DNA of 64,000 bases, taken from contig NC_086107.1 in the NCBI RefSeq assembly GCF_963921235.1, positions 109,928,001-109,992,000 on the forward strand. The letters run 5' to 3'. The stretch comes from Mobula hypostoma (Eukaryota). The notes under the pieces were generated by a model, which was not told where the DNA came from, ran no database searches, and was given only the letters and a program-made list of their open reading frames with translations. Positions 1,124-60,085 of the stretch are shown here, piece by piece (position 1 is the stretch's first letter; each line of letters opens with the position of its first letter). A program made the position numbers and the translations under genes.

Positions 1124-4100
1124 CTAACGTCAGGACAACAGAGCACCCACCTGTCAGATTCCGCTCTGTCCCGAACTCTGTCCAGTACTTCAGGGGAGCC
1201 TGAGGGGAAACCCCCTCACTCGGGGGGTGGTGACGGTGCGGAACGGGCTGCCGGCGCAGATGGTAGGTGCGAGTCCGATTACAGGATTTAAGAGAAGTTT
1301 GGATAGGTACGTGGATGGAGGGGATTTGGAGAGCTGTGTTCCCGATGCAGGTCGATGGAGGTGGGCAGAATAATAGTAGACACAGACTAGAGGGGCCGAT
1401 GGGCCTCTTTCTGCGCTTTAGTATTCTCAAGGAATCTGTGACTCTATTACAAAGTCTCCAAAATTAACATGATTTGAAAAGCTGGCTCTGTTATTGGAGT
1501 CAAACTGGACACACTAGAGGCTGTGGTAGAACAAAGGACCCTACGGAAAATCCTGGCAATCCTGGACAATGTTTCCCACCCTCTGCATGCCACCTTGGCT
1601 GAATAGGGGAGCAATTTTAGTCATAGACTAAGACAACTGCACTGCTCCAAAGAGCACTATATGAGGTCATTCTTACCCTCAGCCATTAGGCTCTATAATG
1701 AGTCAATTAATAGCCGGGGAAGTGATGACCCCCTCCTGTTAGAGTGTTTATGGTAAATTATTTTTTATTCTTTGTACTTCTCTTCTAATATTTATATCTG
1801 TGCACTTGTAATGCTAATGTGACACAGTAATTTCCTTCGGGATCAATAAAGTATCTATCTACCTACCTACCTATGTCCGGCCTGGACTGGCCTGTCTAAT
1901 GCTGATGTTAGGTTTTGTGAAACGACAACTCTTCTTGTTTCCACACTGACCTGCTGAGTGTTCCCCCTTCTCTGTCTAAATTTCACCTTTTCACCGCCAG
2001 CGACATTTAAATGCTACATAATTACAAATTATGGTCAATATTCCTGGTTTTAAGTGTGCTGCTTTGTCTGTCATATCCAACGAGAGCACGTGGGTTTCCT
2101 CCGGGAGGATAATTGGTCACTGTAAATTGTCCCGCAGTTAGGACCGGTCAGGTGTGGGGTGGCGTGGCTCGTTATGCACTTTAAATTTAAAGGCATCCAT
2201 TAGTCTTGCGAGACCATGGATCTGCGCCTGGAAAGTCTTCACTCTCCAGGGCACAGGCCTGGGCAAGGTTGTTTGGAAGACCAGCAGTTGCCCATGCTGC
2301 AAGTCTCCCCTCTCCACGACACCAATGTTGTCCAAGGGAAGGGCATGAGGACCCATACAGCTTGGCACCAGTGTCGTCGCAGAGCACTGTGTGGTTAAGT
2401 GCCTTGCTCAAGGACACAACATGTTGCCTCGGCTGGGGCTCGAACTCACGACCTTCAGGTCACTAGTCTAATGCCTTAACCACTTGGCCACGTGCCCAAC
2501 ACTATGCACTTTATCCCTAAATAAATACATGGTTGCCCGTCGTGTCGGAAGACGACAGGAAACCCGTGCGGGGGAATTTTTAAAGTGGAAAAGCTTTTGC
2601 ACTGGGGAAGTTCCACTCTCTCAGCCTCAGAAGTCCGGGTCCACTAGTACAAACAGTCATCCCAAACCGGGATCTTCCCCGGCCACAGTGGATGACCGTG
2701 ACTTCCTCTGTGTGTCGTCGCGCCCTTCGCTCTCCACGGAGCGTTGGAGCGCCACCTTCCTGGCCGTGGGATCTCACTGTAGTTCACATCCACCCATCCC
2801 GCCAGAGCTGACTTTGTGGTTTTAAGTACCCGATCTGATATAACAGCTTACGTACTCGGAATCGATTAACTACCAACAAAATACCTCCCGCGGGGACATA
2901 AGGATATAGGAACATTCCTGTAGACATAGGTACGTCCTACCCCATTCCACTGCCATACGATGAGCTGCAAGAATAATTGCACAGGTGGCACCATTAGCGC
3001 AAAGCTTTACAGTGCCAGCGACAAGGGTTCAATTTCCGCCGGCATCGAAAAGGAGTTTCAAGCACCACACATAAAAGTTGCTGGTGAACGCAGCAGGCCA
3101 GGCAGCATCTATAGGAAGAGGTACAGTCGACGTTTTGGACCGGGACCCTTCGTCAGGACTAACTGAAGGAAGAGTTAGTAAGAGATTTGAAAGTGGGAGG
3201 GGGAGGGGGAGATCCGAAATGATAGGAGAAGACAGGAGGGGGAGGGATGGAGATATATATATATAAAATAAATAAGTAACGGATGGGATACGAGGGGGAG
3301 GTGGGGCATTAGCGGAAGTTTGAGAAGTCGATGTTCATGCCATCAGGTTGGAGGCTACGCAGATGGAATATAAGGTGTTGTTCCTCCAACCTGAGTGTGG
3401 CTTCATCTTGACAGTAGAGGGGACCGTGGATAGACATATCAGAATGGGAATGGGACGTGGAATTAAAACGTGTGGCCACTGGGAGATCCTGCTTTCTCTG
3501 GCGGACAAAGCGTATAAGGAGTTTGTACGTTCTCCCCACGATCGCGTGGGTTTGCACCGGGCACTCCAGACTCTTTCACGGTCCAATGACCTACAGGTTT
3601 TGGTACAAGTTAGTAGGTTAATTGGTCATTGTAAGTTGTCCCACGATTCGTCTGGGGTTAAATCGGGGGTTGCTGGGCAGTGTGGCTCAAAGAGCTGTTT
3701 TCACGCAGTATCACGATAGATAAATAAATAAGTAAATGGGCAGTACCTGGGAAGATGTTACATCGTAGTGGGTAACCTATCTTTTCATACATGTCTGCCT
3801 CGTCAGTGATGCTCTCCTGCGCCTCTGCTGTCGTGTCCTTGGAATCCAAATCCCTTGCGGGAAATTCCTTCTGATTCAAGAACTCCTTAACCTTCAGGGA
3901 GGCAATGTTAAAAAGCAGATCAGGATGGACATAGGGCAAGCCAAGAGGATTTATGTCCTCTTCGATTTGTTCCGTAAAGCATGAGACAATGTGGGGTTCT
4001 GCTCCATAGATATCATGTAACTCCCTTACCTCACAGAGTACAACAGCACAGAAGCAGGCCCTTCAGCCCATCTAGTCCATGCCAAACTGTTGCCCTCCAT

Positions 4101-7100
4101 ATCCCTCCCATCCATGAACTTCTCTTAAATGTTGTTCATCACCTGGGCTGGCAGCTTGTCCCACACCCTCACCACCCTCTGAGTGAAGAAGTTTCCCCTC
4201 AGGTTCCCCTTAAATATTTCACCTTTTGCCCTTAACCTATGACCTCAAGTTCTAGTCTCACCCAACCACAGTGGAAAAACCCTGTCTGCATTTACCTCCC
4301 CATCATTTTGTATACCCCATGTCAAATCTCCCCTCATTCTCCTACTCTCCAGGGAATGAATCCTAACCTATTCAACCTTTCCCAGGCCATCAAGTCCCAG
4401 GAACATAGTTGTATGTTTTCTCTTCACGGACTGCGTATCTGAGACTATTAAGCCAAGAGTGCCCCTTAGCGACACTTCCATTCCCGTGGGACGGAAGCGC
4501 TCAGCACGGCCTGTGAGCTCAGTGCAGTGCAGAATTCCATGGGGTACTTATGGAATTCTTGCTTTTATCAGTCGAGACATTGAGTTCAAAAGTCAGGAGG
4601 TTATGTCGTAACTTTATAAAACTCTGGTGAGGCCACATCTGGAGGATTGTGCTCATTTCTGGTCGCCCCACTGTAGGAAGGATGTTGAGGCTTTGGAGAG
4701 GGTGCAGAAGAGATTTACCGGGATGCTGCCTGGATTAGAGGTCACATGCTACCACAAGAGGCTGGGCAAACTTGGGTTGTTTTCTCTGGACTGCCAGAGG
4801 CTGAGGGGAGATCTGATAGATGTCTATAAGATTATGAAAGGCATAGATAGAGTAGACAGAGAGTATCTGTTTCCCGGGGTTGAAATATCTAATACCAGGG
4901 GGCATGCACTGAAGGTGAGAAAGGGTAGAGTCAGAGGGGATGTGAGGGGTAAGTTTTTACTCAAAGAGTGCTGGATACCTGGATTACGCTGCCTGGTATG
5001 GCAGTAGGGGCAAATATATTAGAGGATTTTCAAGAGACGTTTGGAAAGGCATATGAATGTATGGAAGATGGAGGGATATGGACCTGGTGTAGGTAGGAGG
5101 GATTAGAGTTTGGGTGTTTTGGATTTGCTTTTTAGCTGGGTCAGCACAACATTGTGGGCTGAATGGCCTGTTCCTGCGCTGTACTGTTCTATGTTCTTAC
5201 AGCACCAGCTTCGGGTGTGCGTTTAGCAGGGTTGAGCCCACAGCTGCCAGCTCAGGGCTGGGAGCCTATGGTTAGGGATACTGTGGATTCCGGTTAACCA
5301 GGGCAGCCACCTATTTGGGACAACTCTGAAAGAACAAAAGCCAATCGTGAAAATAGTCAGGATTCTCTTTTGTCTATTTGGGACACTATGCCGTTTTCAA
5401 ATGTTTTTATTGTGAAGCAACATCAGCTTAACCACAACTGACAATGTCCTAAAAGTACAATGCTTCTTTTTCTAAAAACGCAAACAACAGGAATTCTGCA
5501 GATGCTGGAAATTCAAGCAACATACATCAAAGTTGCTGGTGAACGCAGCAGGCCAGGCAGCATCTCTAGGAAGAGGTACAGTCGACGTTTCAGGCCGAGA
5601 CCCTTCGTCAGGACTAACTGAAGGAAGAGTGAGTAAGGGATTTGAAAGTGGAAGGGGGAGGGAGAGATCCAAAATGATAGGAGAAGACAGGAGGGGGAGG
5701 GATAGAGCCAAGAGCTGGACAGGTGATAGGCAAAAGGGATACGAGAGGATCATGGGACAGGAGGTTCGGGAAGAAAGACAAGGAGGGGGGGGACCCAGAG
5801 GATGGGCAAGAGGTATATTTAGAGGGACAGAGGGAGAAAAAGGAGAGTGAGAGAAAGAATGTGTGTATAAAAATAAGTAACAGATGGGGTACGAGGGGGA
5901 GGTGGGGCATTAGCGGAAGTTAGAGAAGTCGATGTTCATGCCATCAGGTTGGAGGCTACCCAGATGGAATATAAGGTGTTGTTCCTCCAACCTGAGTGTG
6001 GCTTCATCTTTACAGTAGAGGAGGCCATGGATAGACATATCAGAATGGGAATGGGATGTGGAATTAAAATGTGTGGCCACTGGGAGATCCTGCTTTCTCT
6101 GGCGGACAGAGCATAGGTGTTCAGCAAAGTGGTCTCCCAGTCTGCGTCGGGTCTCGCCAATATATAAAAGGCCACATTGGGAGCACCGGACGCAGTATAT
6201 CACCCCAGCCGACTCAGAGGTGAAGTGTTGCCTCACCTGGAAGGACTGTTTGGGGCTTACACTTCCTCCCTTACCACCATTCAGGGCCCCAAACAGTCCT
6301 TCCAGGTGAGGCAACACTTCACCTCTGAGTCAGCTGGGGTGATATACTGCGTCCGGTGCTCCCAATGTGGCCTTTTATATATTGACGAGTTCTCATTGGA
6401 GGATCAGAGGTGGAAAGGATTATCAACTATAAAATCGTAGGTGTCATCGTTTCAGAGGAGCTGTCCCAGGCCCAGCAAGCAAGTGCCATTACAAAGAAAG
6501 CACGGCAGCCCCTCTGCTTCATTAGGAGTTTGCAGAGATTTAGCATGACATCTACAACTTTGACAAACTTCTCTAGATGTGTGTTGGAGAGTATACTGAC
6601 TGGTTGCAACATGGTCTGGCATGGTCTCTATTTCCTGAGGAGAGTGAGGTCCTTTAACATCTGCCGGACGATGCTGAGAATGTTCTACGAGTCTGTGGTG
6701 GCCAGTGCTATCATGTTTGCTGTTGTGTGCTGGGGCAGCAGGCTGAGGGTAGCAGACACCAACAGAATCAACAAACTCATTCGTAAGGCCAGTGATGTTG
6801 TGGGGATGGAACTGGACTCTCTGAAGGTGGTGTCTGAAAAGAGGATGCTGTCCAAGTTGCATGCCATCTTGGACAATGTCTCCCATCCACTACATAATGT
6901 ACTGGGTGGGCACAGGAGTACATTCAGCCAGAGACTCATTCCACCGAGATGCAACACAGAGCGTCATAGGAAGTCATTCCTGCCTGTGGCCATCAAACTT
7001 TGCAACTCCTCCCTTGGAGGGTCAGACACCCTGAGCCAATAGGCTGGTCCTGGACTTATTTCCTGGCGTAATTTACATATTACTATTTAACTATTTATGG

Positions 7101-10100
7101 TTTTGTTACTATTTAATTATTTATGGTGCAACTGTAACGAAAACCAATTTCCCCCAGGATCAATAAAGTATGACTCTACTATACTATGAAAAACACCAAT
7201 GCCCCCTTGAGTGAAAATCCTACAAAAGGTAGTGGATACGGCCCAGTTCACAGGTAAAGCCCTCCCAACCACTGAGCACATCTACGTGAAATGCTGTCAC
7301 AGGAAGGCAGCGTCCATCTTCAGATTCTTCATCTTCAGGTTCTCTTCTCACTGCTGCCATCAGGTAGAAGCTCCTGGAGCCTCAGGACTCACACCACCAG
7401 GTTCAAGAACTGTTTCTACCCCTCAACCATCAGGCTCTTGAACCAAAGGGGATAACTTCACTCAACTTCACTCACCCCATCATTAAAATGTTCCTACGGC
7501 CAATGGACTCAGTTTCAAGGACTCTTCATCTCATGTTCATGATATTTATTGCTTATTTATTTACTATTAGTTCTTTTTTGTGATGGTCTTTCATTGATTC
7601 TGTTATGGTTATTATTCTATAGATGTATTGAGTATGCCCAGAAGAAAATGAATCTCAGGGTTGATAAATGGTGATACATATGTACTTTGATAATAAATTT
7701 ACTTTGAACTTAATTGGGACGGGAGACTGTTGCCAAACAGGTTCTAACTATCGTCAGTCACACACACTGTGTGGCCATTACACACTACAGCAGACTTAGA
7801 GTGAACAGTTTTTAAATAGCATCAGTTGTGTGTGCTTGCGTTCAAAACGCACTGAATTTTGTCACTGGTTGTTGGCAAGAAATAAGCAGTAAGACAACTC
7901 AGAACTGTTTTGCTCACTGTTTTTTTCAAGTATTCAGGCTTGGCGATGCCAGAAATAGTCATGAGTGAAAATGAAATGATTTCACTACTTCGACAAGTTA
8001 GAACTATGAAGATTTTGAGGGTATCGGTAACTATCTTGAATGTTACAGTGAAAATGAAGATTTGGAGGATGCAATCATCGAAAGCATTGTACGAAGGCAG
8101 TCCATTATCCAAAATGCTTGGGGCTGAAAGAGTTTTGGATTTTGAATTTTTCTAATTTTGGAATATATAACGAGATAGCTTGAGATCACCACCATTTCCA
8201 ACTCTGAATTTATGACATACTGGTAAGCAGTGCTTGTCTGCATACTGCATACCATTTACCTTTTAAAATCTTAAAAAATTTAAGGCTGAGTCTTTTCTTA
8301 AATTTCTGCAACCAGCCAGCTGAATATTCATAGTTATCTTAAATTTTCTGTTCATCGTGATAGATCTTTGTTTGTTTCATTATCAGCATACCGTTAAGTG
8401 GCATAGGTTCACTCCAAAGCTGACAAATCCACTCTTTCAATACACAATCGAGATCTTCATTTTCTGCTTTATGTAGTGTTTTTCTATTTTTCATTAACTT
8501 CTGTTCATTACATATGTGAGGTCACTTTGTTGTGTACAGAGGCCAGCACATCACCTGGAAAACTTCCTAGCAACTTGTGGAAATTTCCATTTGTGACATC
8601 GTGTCAGCGCTCAAAAAACCTTTGGATTTTGGAATTTCAGATAAGGGGTGCTCAATCTGTATTAACCCGGGAGGAGGGAGAAGATGGTGGCACAACGACA
8701 GCGCGTGCGGTCACTTCGGTGATGAGTATCTGTTATCTGTCAAGTAGGGGACCGTGCACAATCCTGATTTGATAGAGACGGACGTGAGAGCACAGCGGAA
8801 CATCTGGAAAACTTCTGAAATGACTGCTTTGCTACTGCTGTTACTGTGTGGTAACCGGAATCTCCGGAGCTGAAGGCCTCGAAATCCTCAGCTTTGCGTG
8901 TTTCAGCAGCCGGGGAGAGGGCGAAGGCGCTCAGCAGAGGATGGCGCTTGGGAGGCTGTATCGGAGAGGCTGCTCGGAAGCTCGGAGTTTTTGGACAGAT
9001 GGACTCAATGTCGGCTGTGGTCGGCTGCTTCCAAGGTATTGGCAAGTTGACGGTGCCTGGAGGTTTATGGCAGGGAGTTTCTCCCTTTTGCCGCCTGCTA
9101 TCGGGGACTCGGGAGTCGATCGACTCGGGACTTTGAGAAATTTGTTTTTTACTGTGCCTATGGTCTGTTCTTTATCGAATTATGGTATTGCTTTGCACTG
9201 CTGTAACTATATGTTATAATTATGTGGTTTTGTCAGTGTTAGTCTTTGGTCTCTCTTGTCTTCTGTGATATCACTCCGGAGAAACATTGTATCATTTCTT
9301 AAATGACAATAAAAAGGACTGAGTGTTCTCATAATCTAAGTCTAAATCTATCTACCAGCTTAATACTTATCTATATATTTTGTCTGAAATGCCTCCAAGG
9401 AGCAAGAAACGTTTATACAGAGGTGCAGGAGGGAACCTACACTTGGTGGCCACTTTATCAGGTATACCCGTAATTCTGCTCGTTAATGCGAATATATGAT
9501 CAGCCAATCATGTGGCAGCAACTCAATGCATAAAAGCATGCAGACATGGTCAAGAGGTTCAGTTGTTGTTCAGACCAAACATCAGAATGGGGAAGAAATG
9601 TGATCTAAGTGACATTGACCATGAAATAAATGATTGCTGGTGCCAGACAGGGTGGTTTGAGTATCTCAGAAACTGCTGATCCCCTGGGATTTTCATGCAA
9701 AACAGCCTCGAGAGTTTACAAGAGAATGGGGCAAAAAAAAACACAAAGAAAAATCCAGTGTGGGTGAAAATGCTATGATAATGAGAGAGGTCAGAGGTGA
9801 ATGGCCAGACTAGTTCAAACTGACAAGAAGATGACAGTATCTCAGATAACCACACGTTACAACGGTGGTGTGCAGAAGAGCATCTCTGAACGTACAACAT
9901 GTTGAACCCTGAAGTGGATGGGCTACAGCAGCAGAAGACCATGAACATACACTCAGTGGCCAGTTTATTAGGTACAGGAGGTAAAATGAGTAACTCACAA
10001 GAGAAAAAGTAAAAGATAAAAAGAGGGAAAGTAAACTTGTGTGTTTTGGCAGCTCGGACTGAGTGTTACAAGTAGAAGAAAGTCCTACAATTGGTCTTTC

Positions 10101-11670
10101 ACTCACCTTTTCGTCTGATAGGATCTCGTTCACCACATGGGTCCCAAATTTATGCTGAATATTTTTTGGAATTAGACATTTCTCCTCTGGCGTAGGAAGA
10201 CTCTCTGGGGTCTCGCACAATGGTGACTGCGTGCCGGGTGTCCCTCCCCGCATGGAGACCTCCTCACCGTCGACCTGCCGCTCGCTGCTCCTCCGGTCAG
10301 GGCTGGCGGCCTGGGTTTTGTGCGATGTCTTCAGCCTCGCCTGGCAATCCACGTCTTCGGGCAAACTCTGCCTGGACCCGGTGGTGTTGTGGACGGATTC
10401 CGACTTGGGACGCAGGATACTTTCCGAGTCAACGCAGTGGCCTGATTTTGGGCTGCTAAGCTGCTGGGTTTTGTGGGCAATGTCTGTGCCCTGCGCCAGT
10501 GGAGGTGTCAGCCGATGACAACTGTTAGACGTGTCAGGAAGCTGTTCTTCCTCTGGTATCTCTGTAATTCAGATTCAGATTCATTTATTTATTAAATGTA
10601 CATCAGAACACACAGTGAAGAGTGTCACTGGTGTTCATCACCAACACAACAACGTGCTGGGACTAGCCCATACGTGTCAACACACTTCCAGTGTTCGTTT
10701 AGCATTCCCACAACTCACTAATCCTAATCCGTACAGCTTTGGAAGGTGGGAGGAAACCGGAGCACTTGGAGAAAACCCACACGGTCACGGGGAGAACGTA
10801 CAAACTCCTTACAGACATCGACGGGAATTGAACTCCAATTGCCGATCACGGCCGCCGTAAAGCGTTACGCTAACCACTACGCTCCCGTGCTGCTTCTCTT
10901 CGAGTGAAGAGCGTCTGTCACACCAACCCCGTCTAAGTAACCGAGCGCAAATCTGGCTTCAAGAGTTGCATGGAGGCAGGTATAGTGTGGGGAAGTACAG
11001 TTGTACTGGGAACAGCAAGCATCCTTTTCCCCCAGGGTAAAAAGAGCTAATATGAGAGGGCATAATTTTATGCAGAGGGAAGAAAAGGGGGGAGTGTCAG
11101 AGGTTTGGTAAGGATTGGGCTGCACAGGGTTGGACAAAAGCTGCAGAAAGTTATAAACTCAACCGTCTCCATCATGGACACTAGCCTTCCCGGTATTGAG
11201 GACATCTTCAAAAGGTAATGGATCAAGAAAGTGGCATGCATGATTACAGACCCCCATCACCCAGGACGTGCCCTCTTCTCATTGCTACCATCAGGAAGGA
11301 GATACAGGAGCCTGAAGACACACACTCAACGATTCATAAACAGCTTCTTCCCCTCTGCCATCTGATTTCTGAATGGACTTTGAACCCATGAACACCACCT
11401 CAGTATTTTTGTTCTCTTTTTTCACTACTGATTTCATCTAATTTTTATATACAGCGCCTATAAAAGGTATTCACCCCCCCAGATGTTTCCGTGTTTTATT
11501 GTTTTACAAAATTGAATCACAATGGATTTAATTTGGCTTTTTTTTGACCCTATTCAGCAGAAAAAGTCTCTTTCGTGTCAAAGTGAAAACTGATCTCTGC
11601 AAAGTGATCTAAATTAATCACAAACATTTGCAGATGCTGGAAAACCAAGCAGCACGCACGCACACACACA

Positions 11671-11741
<71 letters not shown>

Positions 11742-14700
11742 CTGGAGAGACTCAGCAGGCCAGGCAGCACCTACAGAAAAAAAGTACAGTCGACGTTTCG
11801 GGCCGCAGTCCTTTGGCAGGACTCAATTAATTACAAGCATAAAGCACAAAATATCTACCTTATGTGCAGTCTAACATCCCTTTATGGACATACAATCAAT
11901 CTATATATATTTATTTACATTATCTTATGTATTTATATTTATTGCATGTTTTTATTATTGTGTAAAGTAACATGGTAGTGCAGTGGTTAACACAATGCTT
12001 TACAGTACCAGCGACTGGGGTTCAATTCCCACTCGTACGCTCTCCCCGTGACTGCCTGGATTTTCTCCAGGAGCTCTGGTTTCGTCCCACAGTGTAAGGA
12101 CGGACAGATTGGTTGATTAATTGGTCATTGTAAATTGTCCTGTGATTAGGCAAGGGTTAAATTGTGGGTTGCTAGGCAGCACTGCCCAAAGGCTCGGAAG
12201 AGCCTATCCTGTGTTGTATCTCAATAAATAAATCTTTATGTCATTGTGGGGGTTTTTTGTGCTGCAACAGATCGGGAGTAACAACTATTTCGTTCTCCTT
12301 TCACTTGTGCACAGGGAATGACATGAAGCAATCTTCAATCTTCATTCTTGAATGACTGAAGACAGGGAGGTGGAGCTGAAGTTAAGGTGCTCTTGATGCA
12401 GTGAATGGCAGAGAAAGTTCAGAGCAGTGTATCGCCTGCCCTTGTCCACATGCGTTGCTGCGAATAAGAATTTGAACGAGGACAAAGGGGAAGAGTGGGA
12501 AGCTCGGCGAAACAGTAAAACAGAGCTGTGGTCTAACATGCCGTGTCTCCACTTCAGTAGAAGCTGATGCTGAGGCAGCCTCGGCGTTGGATCGTAACAC
12601 GTCTAGGTCAATGCAACACGCACAAAATGCTGGAGGAACTCAGCAGGTCAGGCAGCATCTACGGCAACGAAAGTCGACGTTTCAGGCGAAGATCCTTCTA
12701 CAGGACTGGAACGGAAGGCGGTGGGGGGAAGATACCAGAATAAAAAGTTGGGGTGAGGGGTAGGAGGCTAGCTGGAAGGTGATAGGTGAACTCAGGTAGG
12801 TGGAAAAGGTCAAGGGGATAGGATGGGAGAGTGGACCATAGGAGAAAGGGAAGGAGGAGGGGACCCAGGGGAAGTGATAGGCAGGTGAGAAAAGGTAAAA
12901 GGTCAGAGTGAGGAATGGTGGGGGGGGGGGGGGAGGGAATTGTTTACCGGAAGGAGAAATCAATATTCATGCCATCAGGTTGGAGGCTACCCAGATGGAA
13001 TATAAGGAGTTGCTCCTCCACCCTGAGGGTGGACTCACCTTGGCACAAATTGAAAGTAAGTTTATTATCAAAGTACATCCTAAATGTTACCATATACTAC
13101 CTTGAGATTCATTTTCGTGCAGGCATTCTCAAGTAAAACAAAGGCATCCAATGGGTTCAAATTCTTCTTCCCAACCATGCATCAGGTGCCAGTGTAGCAC
13201 AGTACTTAGTGTGACGTTATCACAGCCCGGGACATCGGAGTTTGGAGTTCGATGCCGGCCATCCCTGCGAGGAGTCTGTACGTCCTCCCCGTGTGTGCGT
13301 GCTTCCGTCCCTACCCGCAGTCCAAAGACGTATAGGTTAGTAGGTTAGTTGGTCATTGTAAATTGCCCTGTGATTGGGTTAGGGTTAAATATGTGGGTCG
13401 CCGGGCAATGCAGCGTGAAGGGCCGGACTCCGCGCCATGTCTCTAAACAAATCAAAAATTATCCAGAAAGACCAACAAACAAGAGAAAATCTGCTGGTGC
13501 TGGAAATCCAGAGCAACACACACAAAATGCTGGAGGAGCTCAGCAGGCCAGGCAGCGTCTATGGAAGAGAGTATCGTCGAAGTCTCAGGCCAAGACCCTT
13601 CACCAGTCCGGATCGTCGACTGTTTACTTTTTTCCATAGATGCTGCCTGGCCCACTGAGTTCCTCCAGTAAGACAGACAAACAATCAATGAGCAAGAGAC
13701 GAAAAACTGTGCAGATAAGAAAGACAAGTAAGTAAATAATACAGAGATCATAAGTTCTGTATATGGCATTCTTTACCTTTGGATAAACCTTTACTATCCA
13801 GCGTTGTGCCAAAGAGGGTTCGACCCGGGAACTCGTTAGCTGTCGTTACCTTGGTCTTCATCAGTTTATCTGGAAAGGATTTTTTCATTAAGGGAAACTA
13901 TTCTAAAAAGTTGATGCCTATAGAAAAGTATGTTTGAAATTCAAAAATAACATGACCTTTCTTAAACACATCCTACCTCCGATTCAAGAAGATCTCTTAA
14001 ATAAAGAGCCTTGCCACACTCTCCAGAAGCATGTCTGTTTTCTGGTGACAGACGCCAGATTCTGTATGTTCCCGTTACTCAGATCATCATGAGTGTGAGG
14101 TAATGAATTTTGGGGATTAATAAGGGCAAAACATGGACAATTAATGCTAATGCCCCAGGGCATACTCAGATACAAAAGGACCGGGGTGCAAAGTGAAAAC
14201 GTGCCTGAAGGTGGCAGCACTGTAGCAAAGAAAGCACATCAGACCATAAAATATGGGAGCAGAATAGGTCCATTGAGTCTGTCCTGCCATTCATTCGTGG
14301 CTGATTCTATTTTTCAACCCCACTATCCCATTTCCTCCCTTACTAATCAACATCTTATCAACCTCTGCCTTAAATACACTCTTGGATTTGGCCTCCACAA
14401 CCACTGTTCCCTCCAAGGTGCGCAGCCGCGCTGTAGCTGAAATACTCCCGCACACATAGCCTTTGTTGCTACGCAGCTGGAATTTTCTTTTATATGATGT
14501 TAACATAATTTTAAAATAAAGTGAATGTAATTTTGAAATAATGCTAATATAATTTTGAAATAATCTGTAATTAATTATGTTAATGAATATAACCCATAAT
14601 TTTTCTAAATACCATAATGAAGATTTACTTTGAAATGTTTTAGAGCTTCAATGTATTTATATTGTCAGTGTGTCAAGTTACAACAAATTGTAACAATAAA

Positions 14701-17700
14701 CACAGAATGGAAGTCAGTAGCTTATTTTTAATAAACCGCCTGCCCACTGAATGCTAACGCATGTTTCAAGAAAAACATTTAAAGTGCCGCACAGTTTTCA
14801 GGCCATGTAAAAACTTCCTGCTCAGGGCAAAGCTTAGTCCATGCAGCTGTTTAAAAAAATTAGAGAGAATGTTGTCCACAGCTCTCCGTGGTAACACATC
14901 CCACAGATTCATCATCCTCTAGCTCAGGGGTTCCCAATCGCTTTTACGCCATGGACCCTTCAGCAAGAGGTCCGTAGACTCCAGCTTGAGAAGCCCTGCT
15001 CCAACTAAACAAATTCCCCCTTATCTCAGTTTTGTAGCGATACCCATTAATTCTGAGGCTGTGCCCACTCTCCCACTACTGGAAACATCCTCTCCACCCC
15101 ATCCAGGACTTTCAGTCCCTGACAGGTTTTATAAGATCATTTCTAGCATAGCATAACATTTAGTGTAACGCTTTATAGTGCCAGTGTCGCGAGTCAATTC
15201 CCGTCGCTGTCTGTAAGGAGTTTGTACGTTCTCCCTGTGCCATGTGGGTTACTGCTGAGTACTCTGCTTTTCTCCCACATCACAAAGACGCACTGGTCTT
15301 CGGACGAAAGAAAACCAGAGGGATGTGTGGGACGGACCTTACTCCAGCTTAGGAAGTTGTCACAACATCATGAGCCAAAGAGCCCCCACTGCACTGTACC
15401 GTTCTCTGTTCTATAAAGGAGAAATCAAAAGAGAAAGGGCATGAGTTTAGGCTGAAGGGCTGGAGGTGTAGAGGGGAGCTGAGGAAGAATTTTTCCACCC
15501 AGAGTATGGAGCACACAGCCTGGATGGGTGGTGGAGACACAGAGAGAACCTCACGGCATTAAGGATCCAGCAGGTCTGAATATGAATCAGAATCAGGTTT
15601 AATATCACTGGCATATGTCAGGAAATGTGCTGTTTTGTGGAGGCAGTACTTTGCAATATATAACAACTAAAACCATAAATTACAATAATTCATTTATTCA
15701 TTTTGTTTACATATGTATGTGGAGATACTGCGTGGAATAGGCCCCTCCGGACCCCAACAACCCCGATTTAACCCTAACCTAATCACAGGACAATTTACAA
15801 CGACCAATTCACCTACCTGATATGTCTTTGGACTGCAGAAGGAAATTGTGAAGTAAACAGAAAGGGTGCAGAGGAGATTTACAAGGATGTTGCCTGGATT
15901 GGGGAGCATGCCTCATGAGAATAGGTTGAGTGAACTCGGCCCTTTCTCCCTGGAGCGATGGAGGATGAGAGGTGACCTGATAGAGGTGTATAAGATGATG
16001 AGAGGCATTGATCTTGTGGATAGTCAGTGGCTTTTTCCCAGGGCTGAAATGGCTAGCACAAGAGGGCACAGTTTTAAGGTGCTTTGCAGTAGGTACAGAG
16101 GAGATGTCAGGGGTAAGTTTTTTAGGCAGAGGGTGGTGAGTGTGTGGAATGGGCTGCCGGCGATGTTGGTGGAGGCGGATATGATAGGGTCTTTTAAGAG
16201 ACTCTTGGACAGGTATATGGAGCTCAGAAAAATAGAGGGCTATGGGTAACCCTAGGTAATTTCTCAGGTAAGGACACATTCGGCACAGCTTTGTGGGCCG
16301 AAGGGGGCCTGTATTGTGCTGTAGGTTTTTCTATGAAACCGGAGCACCCAGGGAAAACCCAAGCATTCCACGGGGAGGACGTACAGACTCTTTACAGAAG
16401 ACGCCGGGATTGAACTCCGAGCGAAAAAAAGAGAGAAAGCACAATAGTGAGGTCCTTTACATGAGCTCAATGTTCAGAAATCTGATGGTGGAGGGGAAGA
16501 AGCTGTTCCTAAAAAGTTGAGTGTTTGCTTTCAGGCTCCTGTACCTCCTTTCTGGTGGTAACTATGAGAACAGGGCATGTCCTGGGTGGTGGGGGTCCTT
16601 AATGATGGATGCTGCCTTTTCAAGGCATCGGGTTTTTGAAGTCATTGGTCAAGGGTTATGGGCTAGATGTTTTAAAATGGGATAAGTTTCGATAAGTACC
16701 AGATGGTCAGCAGGGAGACGATTAGGTGTAGGCACTGCTTCTGTAGTGTATCATTCACAACCTATAACACCTCACAAAGACTCAGTAGGCCTTCTGTGGA
16801 AAAGAGAAAGCAGTCGACGTTTTGGGCCAAGACCTTTCTTCAGGACTGGAAGAAAAAGTTGAGAGGTTAGAGCAAGAAGGTGGGGGGGAGAGGAGAAAGT
16901 ACAAGGTAGTAGGTGATAGGTAAAACCTGGAGAGGGGGAAGGATGAAGTAAAGAGCTGGGAAGCTGATAGGTGAAAGAAATGAAAGACTGGAGAAGGGGG
17001 AATCTAATAGGAGGATACGGATTACCATGGAATTAAAGGAAGGTGGAGCAGCCTCAGGGGGAGGTGATGGGCAGGCAAGGAGATCAGGTGAGAGAGGGAA
17101 ATGGGAATCGTGAAGAGGGGGCAATTACTGGAAGTTTGAGATATTGATGTTCATGCCATCAGGTTGGAGGCTACCCAGACGGAATATAAGGTGTTGCTCC
17201 TCCAACTTCCGTGTGGCCTCATCTCGGCAGTAGAGGAGGCCATGGACTGACATGGCAAAATGAGAATGGGAACCAGAATTGACATGGGTGGGCACCGGGA
17301 GATCCCTCTTTTTCTGGCAGACTGAACATAGGTGCTTGGCAAAGTGGTCTCCCAATCTATGTTGGATCTCACTAGATGGCAGGAGGAGAAGACGACGGCG
17401 CGACACAGCACGCGCGGCCTCTCCGGTGAAATTATATCGTATTTATTAAATAGGGGCTGTGCACAATTCTGATTTGATGGAGACAGACTTGAGAAGCACG
17501 GAGGAACATCTGGAGAAACTTCCGAAATGCCCGGTTCACTGCCGCTGTTACTGTGCGATTGAGAATCTCCGGAGGGGAAGGCCCCAAATCCTCGGCTTTG
17601 CCTGTTGCCTGTTGCCGGGGATGGGGTCGAAGCGCTCAGCAGAGATGGTGCTTGGTGCTTGGTGTCGGAGAGCTGGTCCGAGGCTCGAAGTTTTCGGACG

Positions 17701-20700
17701 ACTCAGAGTCGGACTGTGGTCGGGTGCTTCCAGGGTGCTGCATCGGCAAGTTTGCGGTGCCGGAAGCTCATGGCAGGAAGAGTTTTCTTTCTTCTCCCGT
17801 CTGTGTGAGATGATGGGACTTTTGAGAGACTTCGAACTTTTTTTACTGTGCCCATGGCCTGTTCTTATCAAGTTACGGTATTGCTTGCACTGTTATAACT
17901 ATATGTTATAATTATGTGGTTTTTGTCAGTTTTTCAGTCTTGGTCTGTCCTGTGTTTCTGTGATATCACACTGGAGGAACATTGTATCATTTCTTAATCC
18001 ATGCAGTACTAAATGACAATAAAAGAGGACTGCGTGTCCTCATAATCTAATAATCTAATATACAAGAGGCCACACCAGGAGCACCGGATACAATAAATGA
18101 CCCCAACAGACTCACAGGTAGGTGTTGCCTCACCTGGAAGGACTGTTTGGGGCCCTGAATGGCAGTGAGGGAGGGGGTGTAGGGGCAGGTATAGCACGTT
18201 TTCCGCTTGCAAGGATAATTGCCAGGAGGGAGATCAGTGGGGAGGGACGAATGGACGTAGAGAGCAATCCCTGTGGAAAGTGGGAGGGAAAGGTGTGCTT
18301 GCCGGTGGGATCCTGTTGGAGATAATGGAAGTTACGGAGAATTACATGCTGGGCACAGAGGCTGGTGGGGTGGTAGGTGAGGACAAGAGGAACCCTATCC
18401 CTAGTGGGGTGGCGGGAGATAGGGTGAGAGTAGATGTGCGCGAAATGAAAGAGATGCGGGTGAGGGCAACGTTGATGTTAGAGGAAGAAAAGCACTTTCT
18501 TTGAAGGAGGAGGACATCTCCTTCGCTCTGGAATGAAAAGCCCCATCCTGAGAGTAGATGCGGCAGAGACGGAGGAACTGAGAGAAAGGGATGACACCTA
18601 TAACACCAGAGAAAAACAGACAAAAACTGCTAAAGATATGGCAAGGTTGGCGCCCGATGCACCACAAAGCGCAGAGAGGAACAACGAGTACAGACTGCAG
18701 AAGTTTCTCATTTCCTGCCCCTTTAATTCCTATCACACACCCACCCTGATCTTTTGGTCTGTGGTCTCCTGCACAGCTACAGCAGGGTCCAACACAACAT
18801 GGAACACATTACAGTACAGCACAAAGTAGGCCATTTGGCCCATAATGTTGTGCTGAAATATGAATCTAACCCTCCAACACAGCCCTCCGTTTTTCTACCA
18901 TTCATGAACCTGTCCAAGAGTCTCTTAAATGTCCCTGATGTATCTGCCTCCACCACCATCCCTGGCTGCAAATTCCACAGGCTTATCATCTCTGTGTAAA
19001 AGAACTTAGCTCTAACATCCCCCCTATACTTTCCTCCAATCACCTTAAAGTTATTCCCCCTCGTATGAGTCACTTCCACCCTGGGGGGAAAGCCTCTGAC
19101 TATCCACTTGACCTATGCCTCTTATCATCTTGTATGACTTTATCAAGTCACCTCTCATCCCCCTTCACGCCAAAGAGAAAAGCCCTAGCTTACTCAACCC
19201 ATCCTCACAAGACATGCTCTTGAATCCAGGCAACATCCTGGTAAATCTCCTCTGCACCCTCTCAAAAGCTTCCACATCCGTCCTATAATGAGGTGACCAG
19301 AACGGAACACAATGCTCCAAGTGCGGTCTAACCAGTGTTTTATGGAGTTGTAACATTACCTCACGGCTCTTGACCTCCAACACGCCATGCGCCTTCTTAT
19401 CCACGCTCTCAACCCGCACGGCTACTTGAGAAGTCAAGAGGGAGCTGCACTACACGAGATCGACCCCCGCCGTGCCGCAGAGAACAGGCGGCGGCTGTGA
19501 AAGGAGAGGGTGAACAACCAAAAGACCCGACCGCTGACCACAGTCACCACTTACCCTTGCTGGCAGGGCACCAGACTACATAGATCCCGGATCAGCCTCC
19601 CCAGCCACCCGAGGGACCAGCTATAGACACCCCATCATACTCAGCTCCAGTGATCACACCACTACTTCAGGAACAGCACCTCACTTTCTGCCTGGGCACA
19701 TTGCAGCCCTTTGGAATCACTATTGAACTTTACAATCTCGGTTCACTTAACTTCTGTCTCTATTGGATTTGTTGGGGTTGTCGATAGATCAGTGTCCCGA
19801 TCATCAGATTTCTGAGTGGACAATGAACCCATGGACACCACCTCAGTATGTTTATTTTTCCCTTCCTATTTGCTATACTTTTTAAATTTAATTTGTTTTT
19901 ATATGAACTTATTGTAATTTAGAGTTTTTAATATTATGTATTTGTACTTAATAAAAGGTAGTGGATTTGGCCCAGTAAATCACGGGTAAAACCCTCCCAA
20001 CCACTGAGCATATCTTCATGAAACGCTGTCACAGGAAAGCAACATCCATCATCAGAGATCCTCACCACCCAGGCCACGCTCTTTTCTCGCTGCTGCCATC
20101 AGGTCGAAGGTACAGGAGCCTCAGGACTCGCTCCACCAGGTTCAAGAACAGTTACTACCCCTCAACCATCAGGCTCTTGAATAGAAGAGCATAACTGCAC
20201 TCACCTATTGATAAACAAGAGAAATTCTGCCAATGCTGGAAATCCAAGCAACTCACACAAAATGCTGGAGGAACTCAGCAGGCCAGGCAGCATCTATGGA
20301 AAAGAGTGAACAGTTGACGTTTTGGGCTGAAATCCTGCTGAAGGGTTTTGGGCCGAAACGTCGACAATACTCTTTTCCATGGATGCTGCCCGACCTGCTG
20401 AGCTCCTCCAGCATTTTGTGTGTGTTGTTCATCTATTGAGAAGTTTCCACAGCCAATGGTCTCACTTCAAGGACTCTTTATCTCATGTTCTTGTTATTTA
20501 TTGCTATTTATTTATATTTGCATTTGCGCAGTTTGTTGTCTTCTGCATTTTCATTGATCTTTCATTGATCCTACTGTATTCTAAAGATTTGCTGAGAATA
20601 CCCACAAGAAAAATTAATCTCGGGGTTGTATGTGGTGACATGTATGTACTCGGATAGTACATTTTTACTTATTTTTACATCACTGCTACCGCCAAACAAC

Positions 20701-21070
20701 AAATGTCACTACATATGCCAGTGATATTAAACCTGATTCAGTCTGGTCTGGGCGTTATTATCTGAAAGGAGCCATCTCGGACAGTGTAGCTGTCCCTCAG
20801 TACTGCCCTGGTGTAGCAATTTCGTCCTCACGAGGGTCTTAAACTCACAGCCTGCTGTTTTAGGACCGACAGTCACCATAAAGAGTTAGTCCTGACGAAG
20901 GGTCTTGGCCTGAAACGTCGACTGCACCTCTTCCTAGAGATGCTGCCTGGCCTGCTGCGTTCACCAGCAACTTTGATGTGTGTTGTCACCATAAAGCCGC
21001 GGTTTTACACAAAAATATCTCCAACCAAGAAAGAGAAATGTAAAAAAATACTATTACCTGCCATTTTCAT
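1013..21070 (-). CDS. CIMIP4: TEX33/CIMIP4 (ciliary microtubule inner protein 4) orthologue, 3'-partial; proposed join(21070-21058, 13869-13777, 10561-10107, 3891-3747, 1123-1013, last exon beyond left edge)
   Basis: LIPKNIQHKFGTHVVNEILSDEK, GYPLRCNIFPG and [27 protein letters not shown] match recalled human TEX33 [34 protein letters not shown] and [27 protein letters not shown]. Splice phases chain in frame; the 5' exons are less certain. Confidence 0.85.
1455..1875 (+). mobile_element. Rex/Babar-like LINE 3' fragment
   Basis: Similar to 6780-7180 (ILDNVSHPLH motif); ends gatcaataaagta(tcta)n. Confidence 0.7.
2184..2502 (-). mobile_element. tRNA-headed SINE with a probable RTE-like tail and 11-bp TSD, nested in a V-SINE tail
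   Basis: A box TGGCCAAGTGG and B box GAGTTCGAG on the minus strand; TSD tatgcacttta at 2173-2183 and 2503-2513; second copy at 24890-25180. Confidence 0.85.
2983..3730 (+). mobile_element. V-domain tRNA SINE split by a Penelope-like insertion
   Basis: SINE head 2983-3058 resumes at 3516 (ggagtttgtacgttctcccc...gcgtgggtt). Confidence 0.8.
3059..3515 (-). mobile_element. Penelope-like element 3' fragment with 9-bp TSD
   Basis: Encodes the GIY-YIG C-terminus (PVATRFNS...LEEQHLIF...QPDGMNIDF); TSD aaggagttt at 3050-3058 and 3516-3524. Confidence 0.88.
3747..3891 (-). CDS. CIMIP4: CIMIP4/TEX33 exon (VKEFLNQKEF...YEKIGYPLRCNIFP)
   Basis: Pyrimidine tract plus gaag acceptor, GTACTG donor, 145 nt, phase 0/1; same residue count as the corresponding recalled human segment. 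Confidence 0.88.
4545..5195 (+). mobile_element. CR1 LINE 3' fragment
   Basis: ORF 4627-5007 RPHLE.C...ERVQKRFT...RLRGDLI. Confidence 0.9.
5480..6389 (-). mobile_element. Penelope-like element fragment (GIY-YIG domain, 3' region, hammerhead) with 5' inverted duplication
   Basis: VIYCVRCSQCGLLYIGETRRRLGDHFAEH is a PLE GIY-YIG signature; 104-bp inverted arms. Confidence 0.9.
5579..5616 (-). ncRNA. Minimal type I hammerhead ribozyme in a Penelope-like element, sense to CIMIP4 pre-mRNA
   Basis: Reverse complement UAGUC-CUGACGA-A-GGGUCUCGGCCU-GAAA-CGUC-GACUG. Confidence 0.72.
6400..7710 (+). mobile_element. Two nested Rex/Babar-like LINE fragments (inner copy ~6623-7185)
   Basis: Chimeric ORF 6410-7042: KKARQ..FIR.L...ESILTGC then LYFLRRVRSF..FYESVVAS..VCWG; the inner copy has its own aataaa/(ctata)n tail and the outer copy resumes at ~7187. 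Confidence 0.8.
8103..8659. mobile_element. Tigger4/MER46-like non-autonomous DNA transposon remnant
   Basis: ttatccaaaatgcttgggg...ttttggatttt and right end gataaggggtgctcaatctg followed by TA. Confidence 0.6.
8668..9350 (+). mobile_element. About 680-bp non-autonomous retroelement, copy 1
   Basis: Colinear with 17378-18055; 5' aagatggtggc, 3' aatgacaataaa...(aatcta)n tail. Confidence 0.75.
9440..9980 (+). mobile_element. Tc1-like non-autonomous transposon (N-terminal transposase remnant)
   Basis: Left TIR cacttggtggccactttat; decayed MGKKCDLSD..H...GARQGGLSISETAD.LGFS paired-like domain. Confidence 0.8.
10107..10561 (-). CDS. CIMIP4: CIMIP4/TEX33 large exon ending LIPKNIQHKFGTHVVNEILSDEK
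   Basis: 455-nt open frame; strong AAG|GTGAGT donor. The 5' boundary (ttacag) is weak and uncertain. Confidence 0.82.
10567..10890 (-). mobile_element. V-domain tRNA SINE abutting a CIMIP4 acceptor
   Basis: Head gcgtagtggttagcg, V-domain, (ctgaat)n tail. Confidence 0.8.
11451..11625 (+). mobile_element. Tc1-like transposon left end, interrupted by a Penelope end (11628-11824)
   Basis: TA-cagcgcctataaaaggtattcaccccc terminus; imperfect duplication aattaatYacaaRcat at 11612-11627 and 11825-11840. Confidence 0.6.
11652..11736. repeat. Compound (CA)n/(CG)n microsatellite
   Basis: 85 nt of alternating purine-pyrimidine sequence. Confidence 0.95.
11972..12230 (+). mobile_element. V-domain tRNA SINE
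   Basis: gtagtgcagtggtt / ggttcaattcc boxes, V-domain, aataaataaa tail. Confidence 0.8.
12612..13045 (-). mobile_element. Penelope-like element 3' fragment
   Basis: Same tail, degenerate hammerhead and GIY-YIG end as other copies. Confidence 0.8.
13777..13869 (-). CDS. CIMIP4: Probable CIMIP4/TEX33 N-terminal exon (DKLMKTKVTTANEFPGRTLFGTTLDSKGLSK)
   Basis: cctttccag acceptor, AAG|GTAAAG donor, 93 nt, phase 1/1, open, non-repetitive; no homology support. Confidence 0.6.
14402..14874. mobile_element. hAT-like non-autonomous element with 8-bp TSD, inserted in a CR1 3' fragment
   Basis: Imperfect TIRs cactgttccctccaa / ttagagagaatgttg; TSD tccacaac 14394-14401 and tccacagc 14875-14882. Confidence 0.7.
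15862..16335 (+). mobile_element. Young CR1 3' fragment nested in a minus-strand V-SINE
   Basis: ORF 15866-16249 is uninterrupted CR1 ORF2 C-terminus; SINE halves flank it. Confidence 0.9.
16790..18600 (-). mobile_element. Penelope-like element (end of RT region plus GIY-YIG) interrupted at ~17378-18055
   Basis: IPFSQFLRLCRIYS (PLE RT C-terminal), VIYCIRCSWCGLLYI, LEEQHLIFRLGSLQPDGMN. Confidence 0.85.
17378..18055 (+). mobile_element. About 680-bp non-autonomous retroelement, copy 2
   Basis: Colinear with 8668-9350; (aatct)n tail. Confidence 0.75.
18800..19430 (-). mobile_element. CR1 LINE 3' fragment
   Basis: ORFs 19165-19437 and 18777-19079 match the CR1 ORF2 end. Confidence 0.88.
19950..20670 (+). 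mobile_element. Rex/Babar-like LINE 3' fragment carrying a fold-back Penelope insert (20212-20428)
   Basis: Colinear with 7215-7710. Confidence 0.75.
20884..20984 (+). mobile_element. 101-bp Penelope-end insertion (hammerhead plus tail) with 12-bp TSD
   Basis: TSD gtcaccataaag at 20872-20883 and 20985-20996. Confidence 0.9.
20887..20924 (+). ncRNA. Minimal type I hammerhead ribozyme (Penelope-type)
   Basis: Stem I UAGUC/GACUG, core CUGACGA (20892-20898), extra A, stem II GGGUC/GGCCU, GAAA (20912-20915), predicted cut after GUC (C20919); palindromic ACGU replaces helix III. Confidence 0.75.
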
Positions 21071-21081
21071 AATTTCAGAAA
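21058..21081 (-). CDS. CIMIP4: Probable 24-nt CIMIP4 exon containing ATG AAA ATG GCA G
   Basis: ttttgttttgcag acceptor and CAG|GTAATA donor; phase 1 fits the next exon; lies just downstream of the promoter. Confidence 0.6.
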
Positions 21082-26804: not shown

Positions 26805-27895
26805 TGAGCACTTTATTAGGTACAGGAGTGGAGCCTGGTGTAGCCTTCTGCCCACTGTAGCCCATCCTCTTCAAGGTTCAATGTGTTGTGCATTCAGAGA
26901 TGCTCTTCTGCACATCACTGTTGTAATGTGTGGTTATTTGAGTTACTGTCACCTTCCACCAGTCCAGCCATTCTCCTCTGACCTCTCTCACTAATAAGGC
27001 GTTTTTGCCCACTGAACTGCCGCTCACTGGTTCTCCCGATGCGGCCTCCTCTATACTGGCGGTACCCGTCGTAAATTTGGGAACCGCTTCGTCGAGCACC
27101 TCCGCACCATCTGCCAGAAGCAGGGCTTCATGGTAGCCAAATATTTTAAATCCCGTTCCCTTTTCCATTCTGATGTGTCAGTCCATGTTGTCCACCCTCA
27201 GGGTGGAGGAGCAACACCTTATATTCCATCTGGGTACTCTCCAACCTGATGGCATGAATATCGATTTCTCCTCCTGGTAAACACATTTCCCCTACCCACC
27301 TTCTCTTCTTCTCACCTGCTTGTCACTTCCCCCTGAGTCCCCTCCTCCTTCCCTTTCCCCTGTGGTCCACTCTCCTCTCCTAGCAGATTCCTTCTTCTTC
27401 AGCCCTTGACCTTTCCCACCCGCCAGGTTTCTCCTATCACCTTCCAGCTAGCCTCATTCCCCTCCCCCAACCTTTGTATTCTGGCATCTCCCCACCTCCT
27501 TCTCAGTCCTGAAGAAGGGTCTCAGCCCGAAACGTCGACTGTTTATTCGTTTCCATAGATGCTGCCTGACCTGCTGAGTTCCTCCAGCATTTTGTGTGTG
27601 GTGCACCAGATGTTTTTTTTCCCACATCATTTTCTGTAAACTCTAGAGACTGTTGTGGGTGAAAATCCTGGGAGATCAGCAATTACTCAAACCGCCCCGT
27701 CTGGCACCAACAATCATTCCACAAAGCCACTTAGGTCACATTTCTTCCCCATTCTGATGTGTGGTCTGAACAAAAACTGAAGCTCTTGACCATGTCTGCA
27801 TGCTTTTATGCATCAAATTGCTGCCAGCTGATTGGTTGATTAGATATTTGCATTAATGAGCAGGTGTACAGGTGTACCTAATAAAGTGGCCATTG
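26805..27895 (-). mobile_element. Tc1-like element interrupted by a plus-strand Penelope fragment (~27030-27600)
   Basis: Both halves are colinear with 31500-32031. Confidence 0.8.
27504..27541 (+). ncRNA. Minimal type I hammerhead ribozyme at the 3' end of a Penelope-like element
   Basis: CAGUC-CUGAAGA-A-GGGU(CUCA)GCCC-GAAA-CGUC-GACUG; all core positions present. Confidence 0.75.
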
Positions 27896-29850: not shown

Positions 29851-30221
29851 GCCCAGGCTCCTGGGGTTCTTTCTGTATGTGCTGTTAAATGTTTCTAAGT
29901 ATTTACAGGCCCTACAGTGCCTCCTGCTTTACATCCTCCTACTTTTTTTCTAGCAGCTCAGCAGTGGTGACAGACGAACTCATGACTGTGTCTTTGAGAT
30001 CACTAGTGCTTGAGAAGCCATTGGCAGCCGCAGGAAGAGGAATGTCTGGCTTGTGCCTGTGGTGGAGCTGGCCAAGTCAAGCTGTCTGATCTCCAATCTG
30101 GCTCTTTGCAACTTGACTGTGTTGCACATGTTCCTGTGTTACACTCGTGACTCTTCAGGAAATAGTTTCTTACAAAGGTCTTTAGAAACATTTGGAGTTT
30201 GGAAAATATCCCTCAGAATTG

Positions 30222-38405: not shown

Positions 38406-58656
<20,251 letters not shown>

Positions 58657-59226: not shown

Positions 59227-59265
59227 GGTTCTGATGAAAAAGATCATCGACCTGAAACGTTAACT
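59227..59265 (+). ncRNA. Hammerhead-like motif of a second Penelope-end subfamily (degenerate stem II)
   Basis: GGUU-CUGAUGA...GACCU-GAAA-CGUU-AACU followed by the same gatgctgcctgac tail. Confidence 0.5.
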
Positions 59266-59524
59266 CTGTTTCTCTCTCCATAGATGCTGCCTGACTTGCT
59301 GAACATTTCCAGCATTCTCTGCTTTTATTTCAGAAAGGCTTGACATTTTCCACAGCAGAAACAAACAAAAGGCCACTGGGGAGTTCTAAAAGTAGAAGAA
59401 ACAGATACATCACCAAAACTTGAGATTTAAAATCATGATCATCTACCACTCGTTTTTCCCAACAGTTTAAAATGTGCTTCAAACTCTCTCCGGGACATAC
59501 TGCACAATAACATATTGCATTTAT

Positions 59525-60085
59525 GTACACAAGAGATTCTGCAGATGCTGGAAAGCCAGAGCAACACACACAAAATGGCTGGCACAACTCAGCAGGTCAG
59601 GCAACATCTCAGAAAATAAATAAAATAGTTGATGTTTTGGGTGAGACCCTTCATCAGGACAGGAAAAAAAGGGAGAAGATGTCGAATGAAAAGGTGCGCG
59701 GGGGAGGAGAGGAATGAAAAGATTCATCCCAACTTAATAGCTTGAACATCGATATCTCCTTCCGGTAATTTTCCCCCTCCCCCTTCCCTCTTCTTTTATT
59801 CCCCACTTTGGCCTCTTGCCTCTTCTCCTCACCTGTCTATCACCTCCCCCGGTGCCCCTCCTCCTTCCCTTTCTTCCATGGTTTACTCTCCTTTCGTATC
59901 AGATTCCTTCCTCTCCAGCCCTTTATCTTTCCCCACCCACCTGGCTTCACCTATCACATTGTAGCTTGTCCTCCCTCCCCTCCCTCCATCTTTTTATTCA
60001 GGTGTCTTTCCCGTTCCTTTCCAATCCTGAAGAAGTGTCTTGGCCCGATGCTAACTGACCTGCTGAGTTCCCCCAGAATTTTCTG
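59525..60085. mobile_element. Penelope-like ends in inverted arrangement
   Basis: Minus-oriented end ~59525-59715 joined to a plus-oriented end ~59730-60085. Confidence 0.7.

Follow-up and report, generated by a model that had tools for sequence, protein, structure and literature searches.

The 64-kb stretch of Mobula hypostoma DNA analyzed here (the window) is strewn with copies of a short motif that resembles a minimal hammerhead ribozyme. This raises the question of which element left these copies behind, and whether the ribozyme may act in the element, in the host or in neither. We consider it highly probable (about 0.88) that the copies are 3′ ends of 5′-truncated Penelope-like elements carrying the pseudo-LTR hammerhead, that this hammerhead depends on dimerization in the full element, and that the inserted relics decay without host function.

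Hammerhead copies in the window

A profile HMM of the repeat family gives 24 matches in the 64-kb window, 20 of which extend into the hammerhead region, ten per strand; the other four consist of tail alone or of an inverted arm of the tail. With a covariance model for which window copies supplied part of the alignment, 12 matches are obtained at E<=1; against these two figures the preliminary estimate of about 15 copies was fair. The copies are organized as follows:

1898..1962, plus strand: strongly degraded copy, antisense within a TEX33 intron
3057..3514, minus strand: truncated element with endonuclease end and 9-bp target-site duplication, in a TEX33 intron, sense; hammerhead at 3124-3161 (minus) with G12A and C11.3U
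5480..6389, minus strand: 5′-truncated Penelope-like insertion with endonuclease end (5913-6239), pyrimidine tract, hammerhead, ~100-nt tail and an inverted 5′ arm (~6258-6389)
5579..5616, minus strand: hammerhead of the young subfamily with intact core and C11.1U, in a TEX33 intron, sense
11727..11827, minus strand: short stub beginning at stem I, with A6C, G8A, stem II changes and a (CA)n tract at its end
12608..13045, minus strand: truncated element with endonuclease end; hammerhead at 12671-12709 with A6U, G10.3A and C11.1U
13476..13671, both strands: two tails inverted head to head and meeting within the hammerhead region; neither core is intact, and 8 bp are duplicated at the flanks
16780..17442, minus strand: truncated element with endonuclease end; hammerhead at 16811-16848 with G12A and G10.1A
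20213..20430, both strands: head-to-head inverted pair with 7-bp flanking duplication; its plus arm begins with stem I and carries A6C, the minus arm is truncated in stem II and has G12A
20884..20985, plus strand: ~100-nt insertion of hammerhead (20887-20924) and tail only, flanked by a target-site duplication of 12 bp and sharing 97% identity with the 5579 copy
27029..27604, plus strand: truncated element with endonuclease end; hammerhead at 27504-27541 with unchanged core and stems
28756..29200, minus strand: truncated young element; hammerhead at 28824-28861 with U16.1C only, so that the cleavage triplet is lost and the catalytic half intact
33168..33280, both strands: tail from a few bases before the cleavage site plus a short inverted arm, with a 6-bp flanking duplication that could be chance
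33755..33867, plus strand: decayed copy beginning near stem II, with G12A and other changes
43697..44307, plus strand: old divergent element with endonuclease remnants and a decayed hammerhead near 44215, in a UBE2I intron, antisense
58333..58462, plus strand: short stub beginning at stem I, with A6C, A15.1C and G16.2U, in a UBE2I intron, antisense
59227..59265, plus strand: second-subfamily hammerhead with a U-A pair in stem I, U17, intact core and one stem II mismatch
59528..60086, both strands: head-to-head pair; the minus copy has its hammerhead at ~59626-59662 with G12A and G16.2A, the plus copy (60023) has an endonuclease end and has lost the 3′ half of its hammerhead

The family consensus holds a complete CUGANGA and GAAA core with a UH cleavage site, lacks helix III and has an ACGU palindrome (at positions given as 15.1-16.1 or 15.2-16.2). 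An extra base between 9 and 10.1 is A in all 15 copies, G10.1 is kept in 14 of 15 and C11.1 in 11 of 16, the remainder being CpG decay. The minimal type I geometry with an ACGU palindrome, as first described, is thereby borne out at the individual loci. A strict descriptor, requiring both stems and the full core, matches the window three times, at 5584-5611 (minus), 20892-20919 (plus) and 27509-27536 (plus), and matched none of 200 dinucleotide shuffles of the window. An Rfam search of the window returned no hammerhead match at E<=10; its matches to mir-1641 and AEV_CRE are hairpins of inverted arms, at 6219-6323 and 13533-13665.

All core bases are kept in four of the 20 copies (5579, 20887, 27504 and 59227), and only 27504 (plus) is free of any core or stem change. 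The copies at 5579, 20887 and 27504 had been called core-intact, which is right for the core bases; in 5579 and 20887, however, C11.1U turns the conserved G10.1-C11.1 pair into a wobble. The copy at 59227-59265 (plus) had properly been called a variant, since it combines a full core with a stem II mismatch and belongs to the second subfamily. The lesions listed earlier were also read correctly: G12A at 3124, 16811 and 59627, U16.1C at 28824 and A6U at 12672, while the lesion at 11787 is A6C plus G8A.

The carrier element

An end of a GIY-YIG endonuclease lies on the same strand 153-299 nt upstream of eight of the 20 copies (stops approximate), with the 5579 copy 299 nt past the stop. Pfam GIY-YIG matches the 5480..6389 element at E 0.0013, with a score below the gathering cut-off. 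The endonuclease peptide of the window is identical to the Mobula hypostoma protein P0001 at 104 of 109 positions and 77-85% identical to four Hypanus sabinus proteins. P0001 carries the reverse transcriptase (RT) motif YIDD, a CX2-5CxxC linker and two cysteines inside GIY-YIG, and the linker precedes the endonuclease in all five ray proteins examined. The window copy is truncated just after this linker; the RT is absent from the window, and its motif and its order before the endonuclease are seen in P0001. According to the relevant part of PMC8557442, the linker is a mark of Neptune and Nematis elements. The upstream endonuclease and the 95% identity to a Penelope-like protein of Mobula together indicate that the copies are the 3′ ends of truncated elements, as their designation as Penelope-derived ends implied. 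Judged by sequence, the carriers are Penelope-like elements of several subfamilies, probably of Neptune type, with a linker that is common to Nematis too.

No full-length element with two terminal repeats (pseudo-LTRs) is present in the 64 kb, and all copies are 5′-truncated. The insertions are cut short at the 5′ end, in some cases bear an inverted 5′ arm and, where two are joined in inverted orientation, have a longer tail on one side. Duplications of 12, 9, 8 and 7 bp flank four of the 16 insertions examined, and 6-bp matches at others may be chance. Head-to-head inverted insertions are seen at 13476-13671, 20213-20430, 33168-33280, 6153-6389 and 18057-18181; three of the inverted pairs have their junctions in the hammerhead and 6-8 bp flanking duplications, so that each pair looks like one event. 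The repeat is very abundant in related sequencing runs (four were compared, all consisting of contigs), with 20,210 of 1,736,423 contigs of run X1 matching 5300-6450.

Other repeats share the window. A perfect 75-nt direct duplication (28473-28547 and 28728-28802) spans an element 3′ end and its flank. LINE remnants, with Pfam matches to endonuclease and RT, and a tRNA-like SINE head are found at 52473-54431 (plus), 29154-29884 (minus), 6386-7042 (plus) and 2435-2497 (minus), and D5 is a SINE-like family with eight copies in the window.

A separate short unit?

Part of the population could represent a separate, non-autonomous and retrozyme-like unit of hammerhead and tail (~100-120 nt), mobilized by the Penelope enzyme and including a subfamily with A6C. 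Among the 14 copies with an intact 5′ half, five start at or near stem I and lack upstream element sequence, and all three A6C copies are such short stubs (3/5 vs 0/9, p=0.027, a post hoc comparison). Yet three identical transversions somewhere in the motif would arise by chance with a probability of 0.06-0.18 after correction for multiple testing, the C6 copies form no supported clade in an unresolved tree, and every one of them bears further lesions. The base change itself is a known natural core variant, weak in Mg2+ and better in Mn2+ according to the passages concerned in PMC7151607 and PMC3088659; A6 is nevertheless found in all three named ray proteins whose reading frames cross the motif (P0013, P0014 and P0017). 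The insertion at 20884 consists of just hammerhead and tail within a 12-bp duplication, but plain truncation at the hairpin accounts for it, because its sequence matches the terminal part of a long element at 97% identity. The gene model P0017 of Hypanus reads through a tandem tail array with a unit of ~118 nt, whereas the 64-kb window contains no tandem array. We therefore regard such a unit as possible though rather doubtful. As for annotation, P0017 (Hypanus sabinus) looks like a retrozyme-like tail array misannotated as a gene, and P0013-P0015 also contain translated tail.

A broader scenario joins an amplified A6C subfamily, within a short non-autonomous unit mobilized in rays by Neptune-type elements, to a dispersed population whose lesions fall separately on the catalytic and the substrate half and which would cut host pre-mRNAs as mixed dimers, for instance through the two sense copies of TEX33; we find it improbable as a whole.

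Conservation across element lineages

Relatives of the element, with ~30-55% identity, are encoded by metagenome loci, of which we consider the best 80 of 211, most of them from one metagenome. In 44 of these 80, the endonuclease is followed by 250 nt or more; a hammerhead-like match occurs in sense orientation in 26 of the 44 and in antisense orientation in none. The family motif accounts for 25 of the 26, mostly ~109 nt downstream of the endonuclease, and the remaining one is probably chance. This motif aligns with that of the ray without gaps. A model built from 41 metagenome motifs alone ranks five window copies at the top with rough E-values of 0.001-0.037, the next match being at E 1.3. 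The strict descriptor retrieves only two motifs from the 80 metagenome loci, and succeeds in one of the 30 that are evaluable, since U4C in this family breaks the match. The consensus of this Penelope-like family (L074-L148) combines U4C with a helix I that is extended distally. Searches with ray-type DNA patterns gave no match in the metagenome, prokaryote and viral collections, and a viral search for related loci gave one weak locus.

In the alignment of both lineages (A2, comprising ten of the 20 copies of the window and 41 of the 42 motifs from metagenomes after removal of truncated rows and rows containing indels), the covariation named as a check in the preliminary description is present in helix I, where two pairs are altered on both sides, while two pairs of helix II are altered on one side only. 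Each pair represents one event separating two lineages (three lineages if 59227 is counted), and the changes are not 21 independent events. The same geometry after the endonuclease in distant relatives, together with the compensatory pairs in stem I, indicates that the lineage of the element has conserved the motif.

Conservation of this kind could also reflect a fold or a protein-binding signal for the reverse transcriptase that is non-catalytic in vivo. What the lineages share, however, are the bases of the catalytic core, whereas loops and tails have diverged. U4C is moreover tolerated in a viroid, as stated in the part of PMC3088659 that covers it, and cleavage of dimers is described for the class in the corresponding sections of PMC4209133 and PMC6765202. 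We thus hold a purely structural signal to be unlikely.

Cleavage and proposed mechanism

In the experiments described in PMC4209133, the monomer of the motif did not cleave and dimers cleaved at a low level; that paper proposes hammerhead processing of the element RNA, possibly into circles, and the review PMC6765202, in its section on the subject, agrees with this account. For Xenopus, cleavage is given for one of nine dimers in the portion of the report concerned (Li, Clavereau, Pollet 2026, 10.64898/2026.07.22.740005). Following this literature, the motif would work solely within RNA transcribed from a full element, whose two terminal repeats bring two motifs together; these would pair through ACGU into a double hammerhead, cut after GUC and so process the element RNA. 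A single inserted copy would have no partner and would fold as an inactive hairpin, and single copies would decay after insertion without host function. Most likely, then, activity is weak, is exerted as a dimer within the full-element transcript, and would be nil in the window copies.

Folding predictions add detail to this model, although energy models omit tertiary contacts and proteins and are uninformative on catalysis. In monomers with C7, G5-G8 are predicted to pair with C15.2-C17 with a probability of 0.95-0.98, while 27504, with A7, folds as an open hammerhead. The resulting C7 rod, which hides both core and palindrome, is found in 5579, 20887 and 3124 of the young ray subfamily and in the distant family at L141:2950-2989; it is possible that it acts as a built-in inhibition of the monomer. 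Nearest-neighbour energies give the double hammerhead no advantage: for 27504 they amount to -16.3 kcal/mol, vs -17.4 kcal/mol for two monomers. In both ray subfamilies a second palindrome, of 6 nt, spans the cleavage site (5579-5586 and 59257-59265), and for that of 5579 an inactive duplex is predicted to be more stable than the double hammerhead.

Copies with a complete tail all retain ~100 nt past the cleavage site. The RNA that was copied was consequently either uncut there or circular, which leaves a role of cutting in transposition unproven.

Decay of the inserted copies

Outside CpG sites, changes amount to 12/133 in the core, 18/217 in the stems and 50/539 in the tail (core vs tail p=1.0); without five subfamily-diagnostic columns the tail has 22/457 and the core is higher (p=0.09). 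This tally covers 17 of the 20 copies (59227, 1918 and 44215 being omitted as too divergent), mixes subfamilies and has low power. The core is no better kept than the flanking tail, and the inserted copies decay neutrally. G12A (five of 15 copies) and C11.1U (five of 16) fall on one CpG and are two outcomes of decay at that single site. Core and tail decay equally fast across the copies, a result without sign of purifying selection on genomic copies; within its low power, the pattern fits selection during transposition and none after insertion.

Host genes and introns

The window contains two host genes:

1000..10563, minus strand: TEX33-like host gene, coding exons ~10563-10107, 4029-3747 and 1124-1002, in phase
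38406..58647, minus strand: UBE2I(Ubc9)-like host gene, six coding exons, open frame, Pfam UQ_con

The upstream (first) exon of TEX33 was not located in the window. The peptide of the second gene is presumably that of UBE2I, and a splice acceptor of this gene lies ~20 nt before the ATG. This complete six-exon UBE2I/Ubc9-like gene is upstream of TEX33 on the same strand. In human, UBE2I is located at 16p13 and TEX33 at 22q13, two paralogous regions, so that the UBE2I/Ubc9-like gene may represent a duplicate that cartilaginous fish have kept.

An intronic position is shown for five of the 20 copies. Three others are probably in the 5′ intron of UBE2I, because the acceptor precedes the ATG, and 12 lie between the TEX33-like and UBE2I-like genes. 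Both genes run on the minus strand, so the three core-intact copies on the plus strand, of four in all, are antisense to them, and only 5579 (TEX33) is both core-intact and sense to its host gene. By strand, core-intact copies number one in ten (minus) and three in ten (plus), and no depletion of the sense strand is demonstrable. The suggestion of a very large ribozyme repertoire inside introns is not supported, given a core kept in four of 20 copies, introns shown for five of 20 and decay at the rate of the tail; the term repertoire is itself an overstatement because published monomers do not cleave.

Dispersed copies might instead act on host RNA as mixed dimers, within one pre-mRNA or between transcripts. 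The candidate pair is 5579 and 3124, both sense in consecutive introns of the TEX33 pre-mRNA, with an exon between them and 2.4 kb of separation. G12A damages the catalytic half of 3124 but leaves its GUC half intact, and 5579 could supply a catalytic half to cut there, provided that the halves of a double hammerhead are separable, as the dimer model would imply. The great abundance of the repeat in run X1 (20,210 of 1,736,423 contigs on 5300-6450) also speaks for this reading. In the hammerhead fold, however, the mixed dimer has -8.2 vs -8.9 kcal/mol for the monomers, and the best co-fold of the pair is far lower, at -26.5 kcal/mol. The neutral decay of dispersed cores and the lack of depletion of core-intact copies in sense orientation (1/10 minus vs 3/10 plus) likewise argue against it, as does the weak cleavage of dimers of this class even when adjacent, described in the pertinent part of PMC4209133. 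Action on host RNA is hence very improbable. Finally, chance resemblance has practically no likelihood and is refuted by the shuffles, the sense-only metagenome motifs and the independent model that recovers window copies; core letters alone do arise by chance, as in 69 viral stretches matching a looser core pattern, but both stems reached at least 4 bp in none of the 69, and only one had 4 and 3.

Comparison with known systems

The truncated Penelope-like ends in the window closely follow the minimal hammerheads of metazoan Penelope-like elements in the parts of their description considered here (Cervera and De la Pena 2014, PMC4209133). Both are type I without helix III and have the palindrome, the extra base between 9 and 10.1, G10.1-C11.1 and a helix I of 4-5 bp; both occur mostly as single dispersed motifs from truncated elements, and also as close pairs on opposite strands. 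The window differs in its host, a ray, and in a helix II of 4 bp. The same source counts ~4,000 motifs in the coelacanth and ~9,000 in Xenopus, published numbers which the density in the window (20 remnants, four of them core-intact, in 64 kb) would exceed if it were typical. We found no ray-specific description in the literature, from which absence from print does not follow, as supplements may list motifs of cartilaginous fish.

With EN+ elements of the Neptune clade, as far as the relevant sections describe them (Craig et al. 2021, PMC8557442), the closest proteins share a C-terminal GIY-YIG with internal cysteines and the CX2-5CxxC linker, and the window shares 5′ truncation, inverted 5′ arms, a 30-40 nt tail on one end and a hammerhead near the 3′ end. 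Unlike full elements of that clade, the window shows neither RT nor a full pseudo-LTR structure. Non-LTR retrozymes, according to the portion of 10.64898/2026.07.22.740005 that deals with them, are short Penelope-derived hammerhead units with dispersed monomers that resemble the window copies; they are reported there in one chondrichthyan, and ~42-44% of the Xenopus copies are intronic. They are defined by tandem arrays, whereas the copies in the 64-kb window are isolated monomers without a tandem array of hammerhead units. The domesticated hammerheads of amniotes (RECK, C10orf118; PMC3088659) are intronic, like some window copies. In the account given there each exists as one copy, is conserved among species and shows activity as a monomer; the window copies, in contrast, belong to a multi-copy family, have no helix III and undergo neutral decay.

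Meaning

The motif is an already described signature of Penelope-like tails, of a class known since 2014, to which a ray example is added. The finding would gain greater weight if dispersed copies did cut host transcripts as mixed dimers, or if a subfamily with A6C had spread, in which case the element could evidently do without full catalytic activity. A very young and very abundant family with natural core lesions, together with a distant family of the same geometry, provides material on the role of the hammerhead in Penelope transposition.
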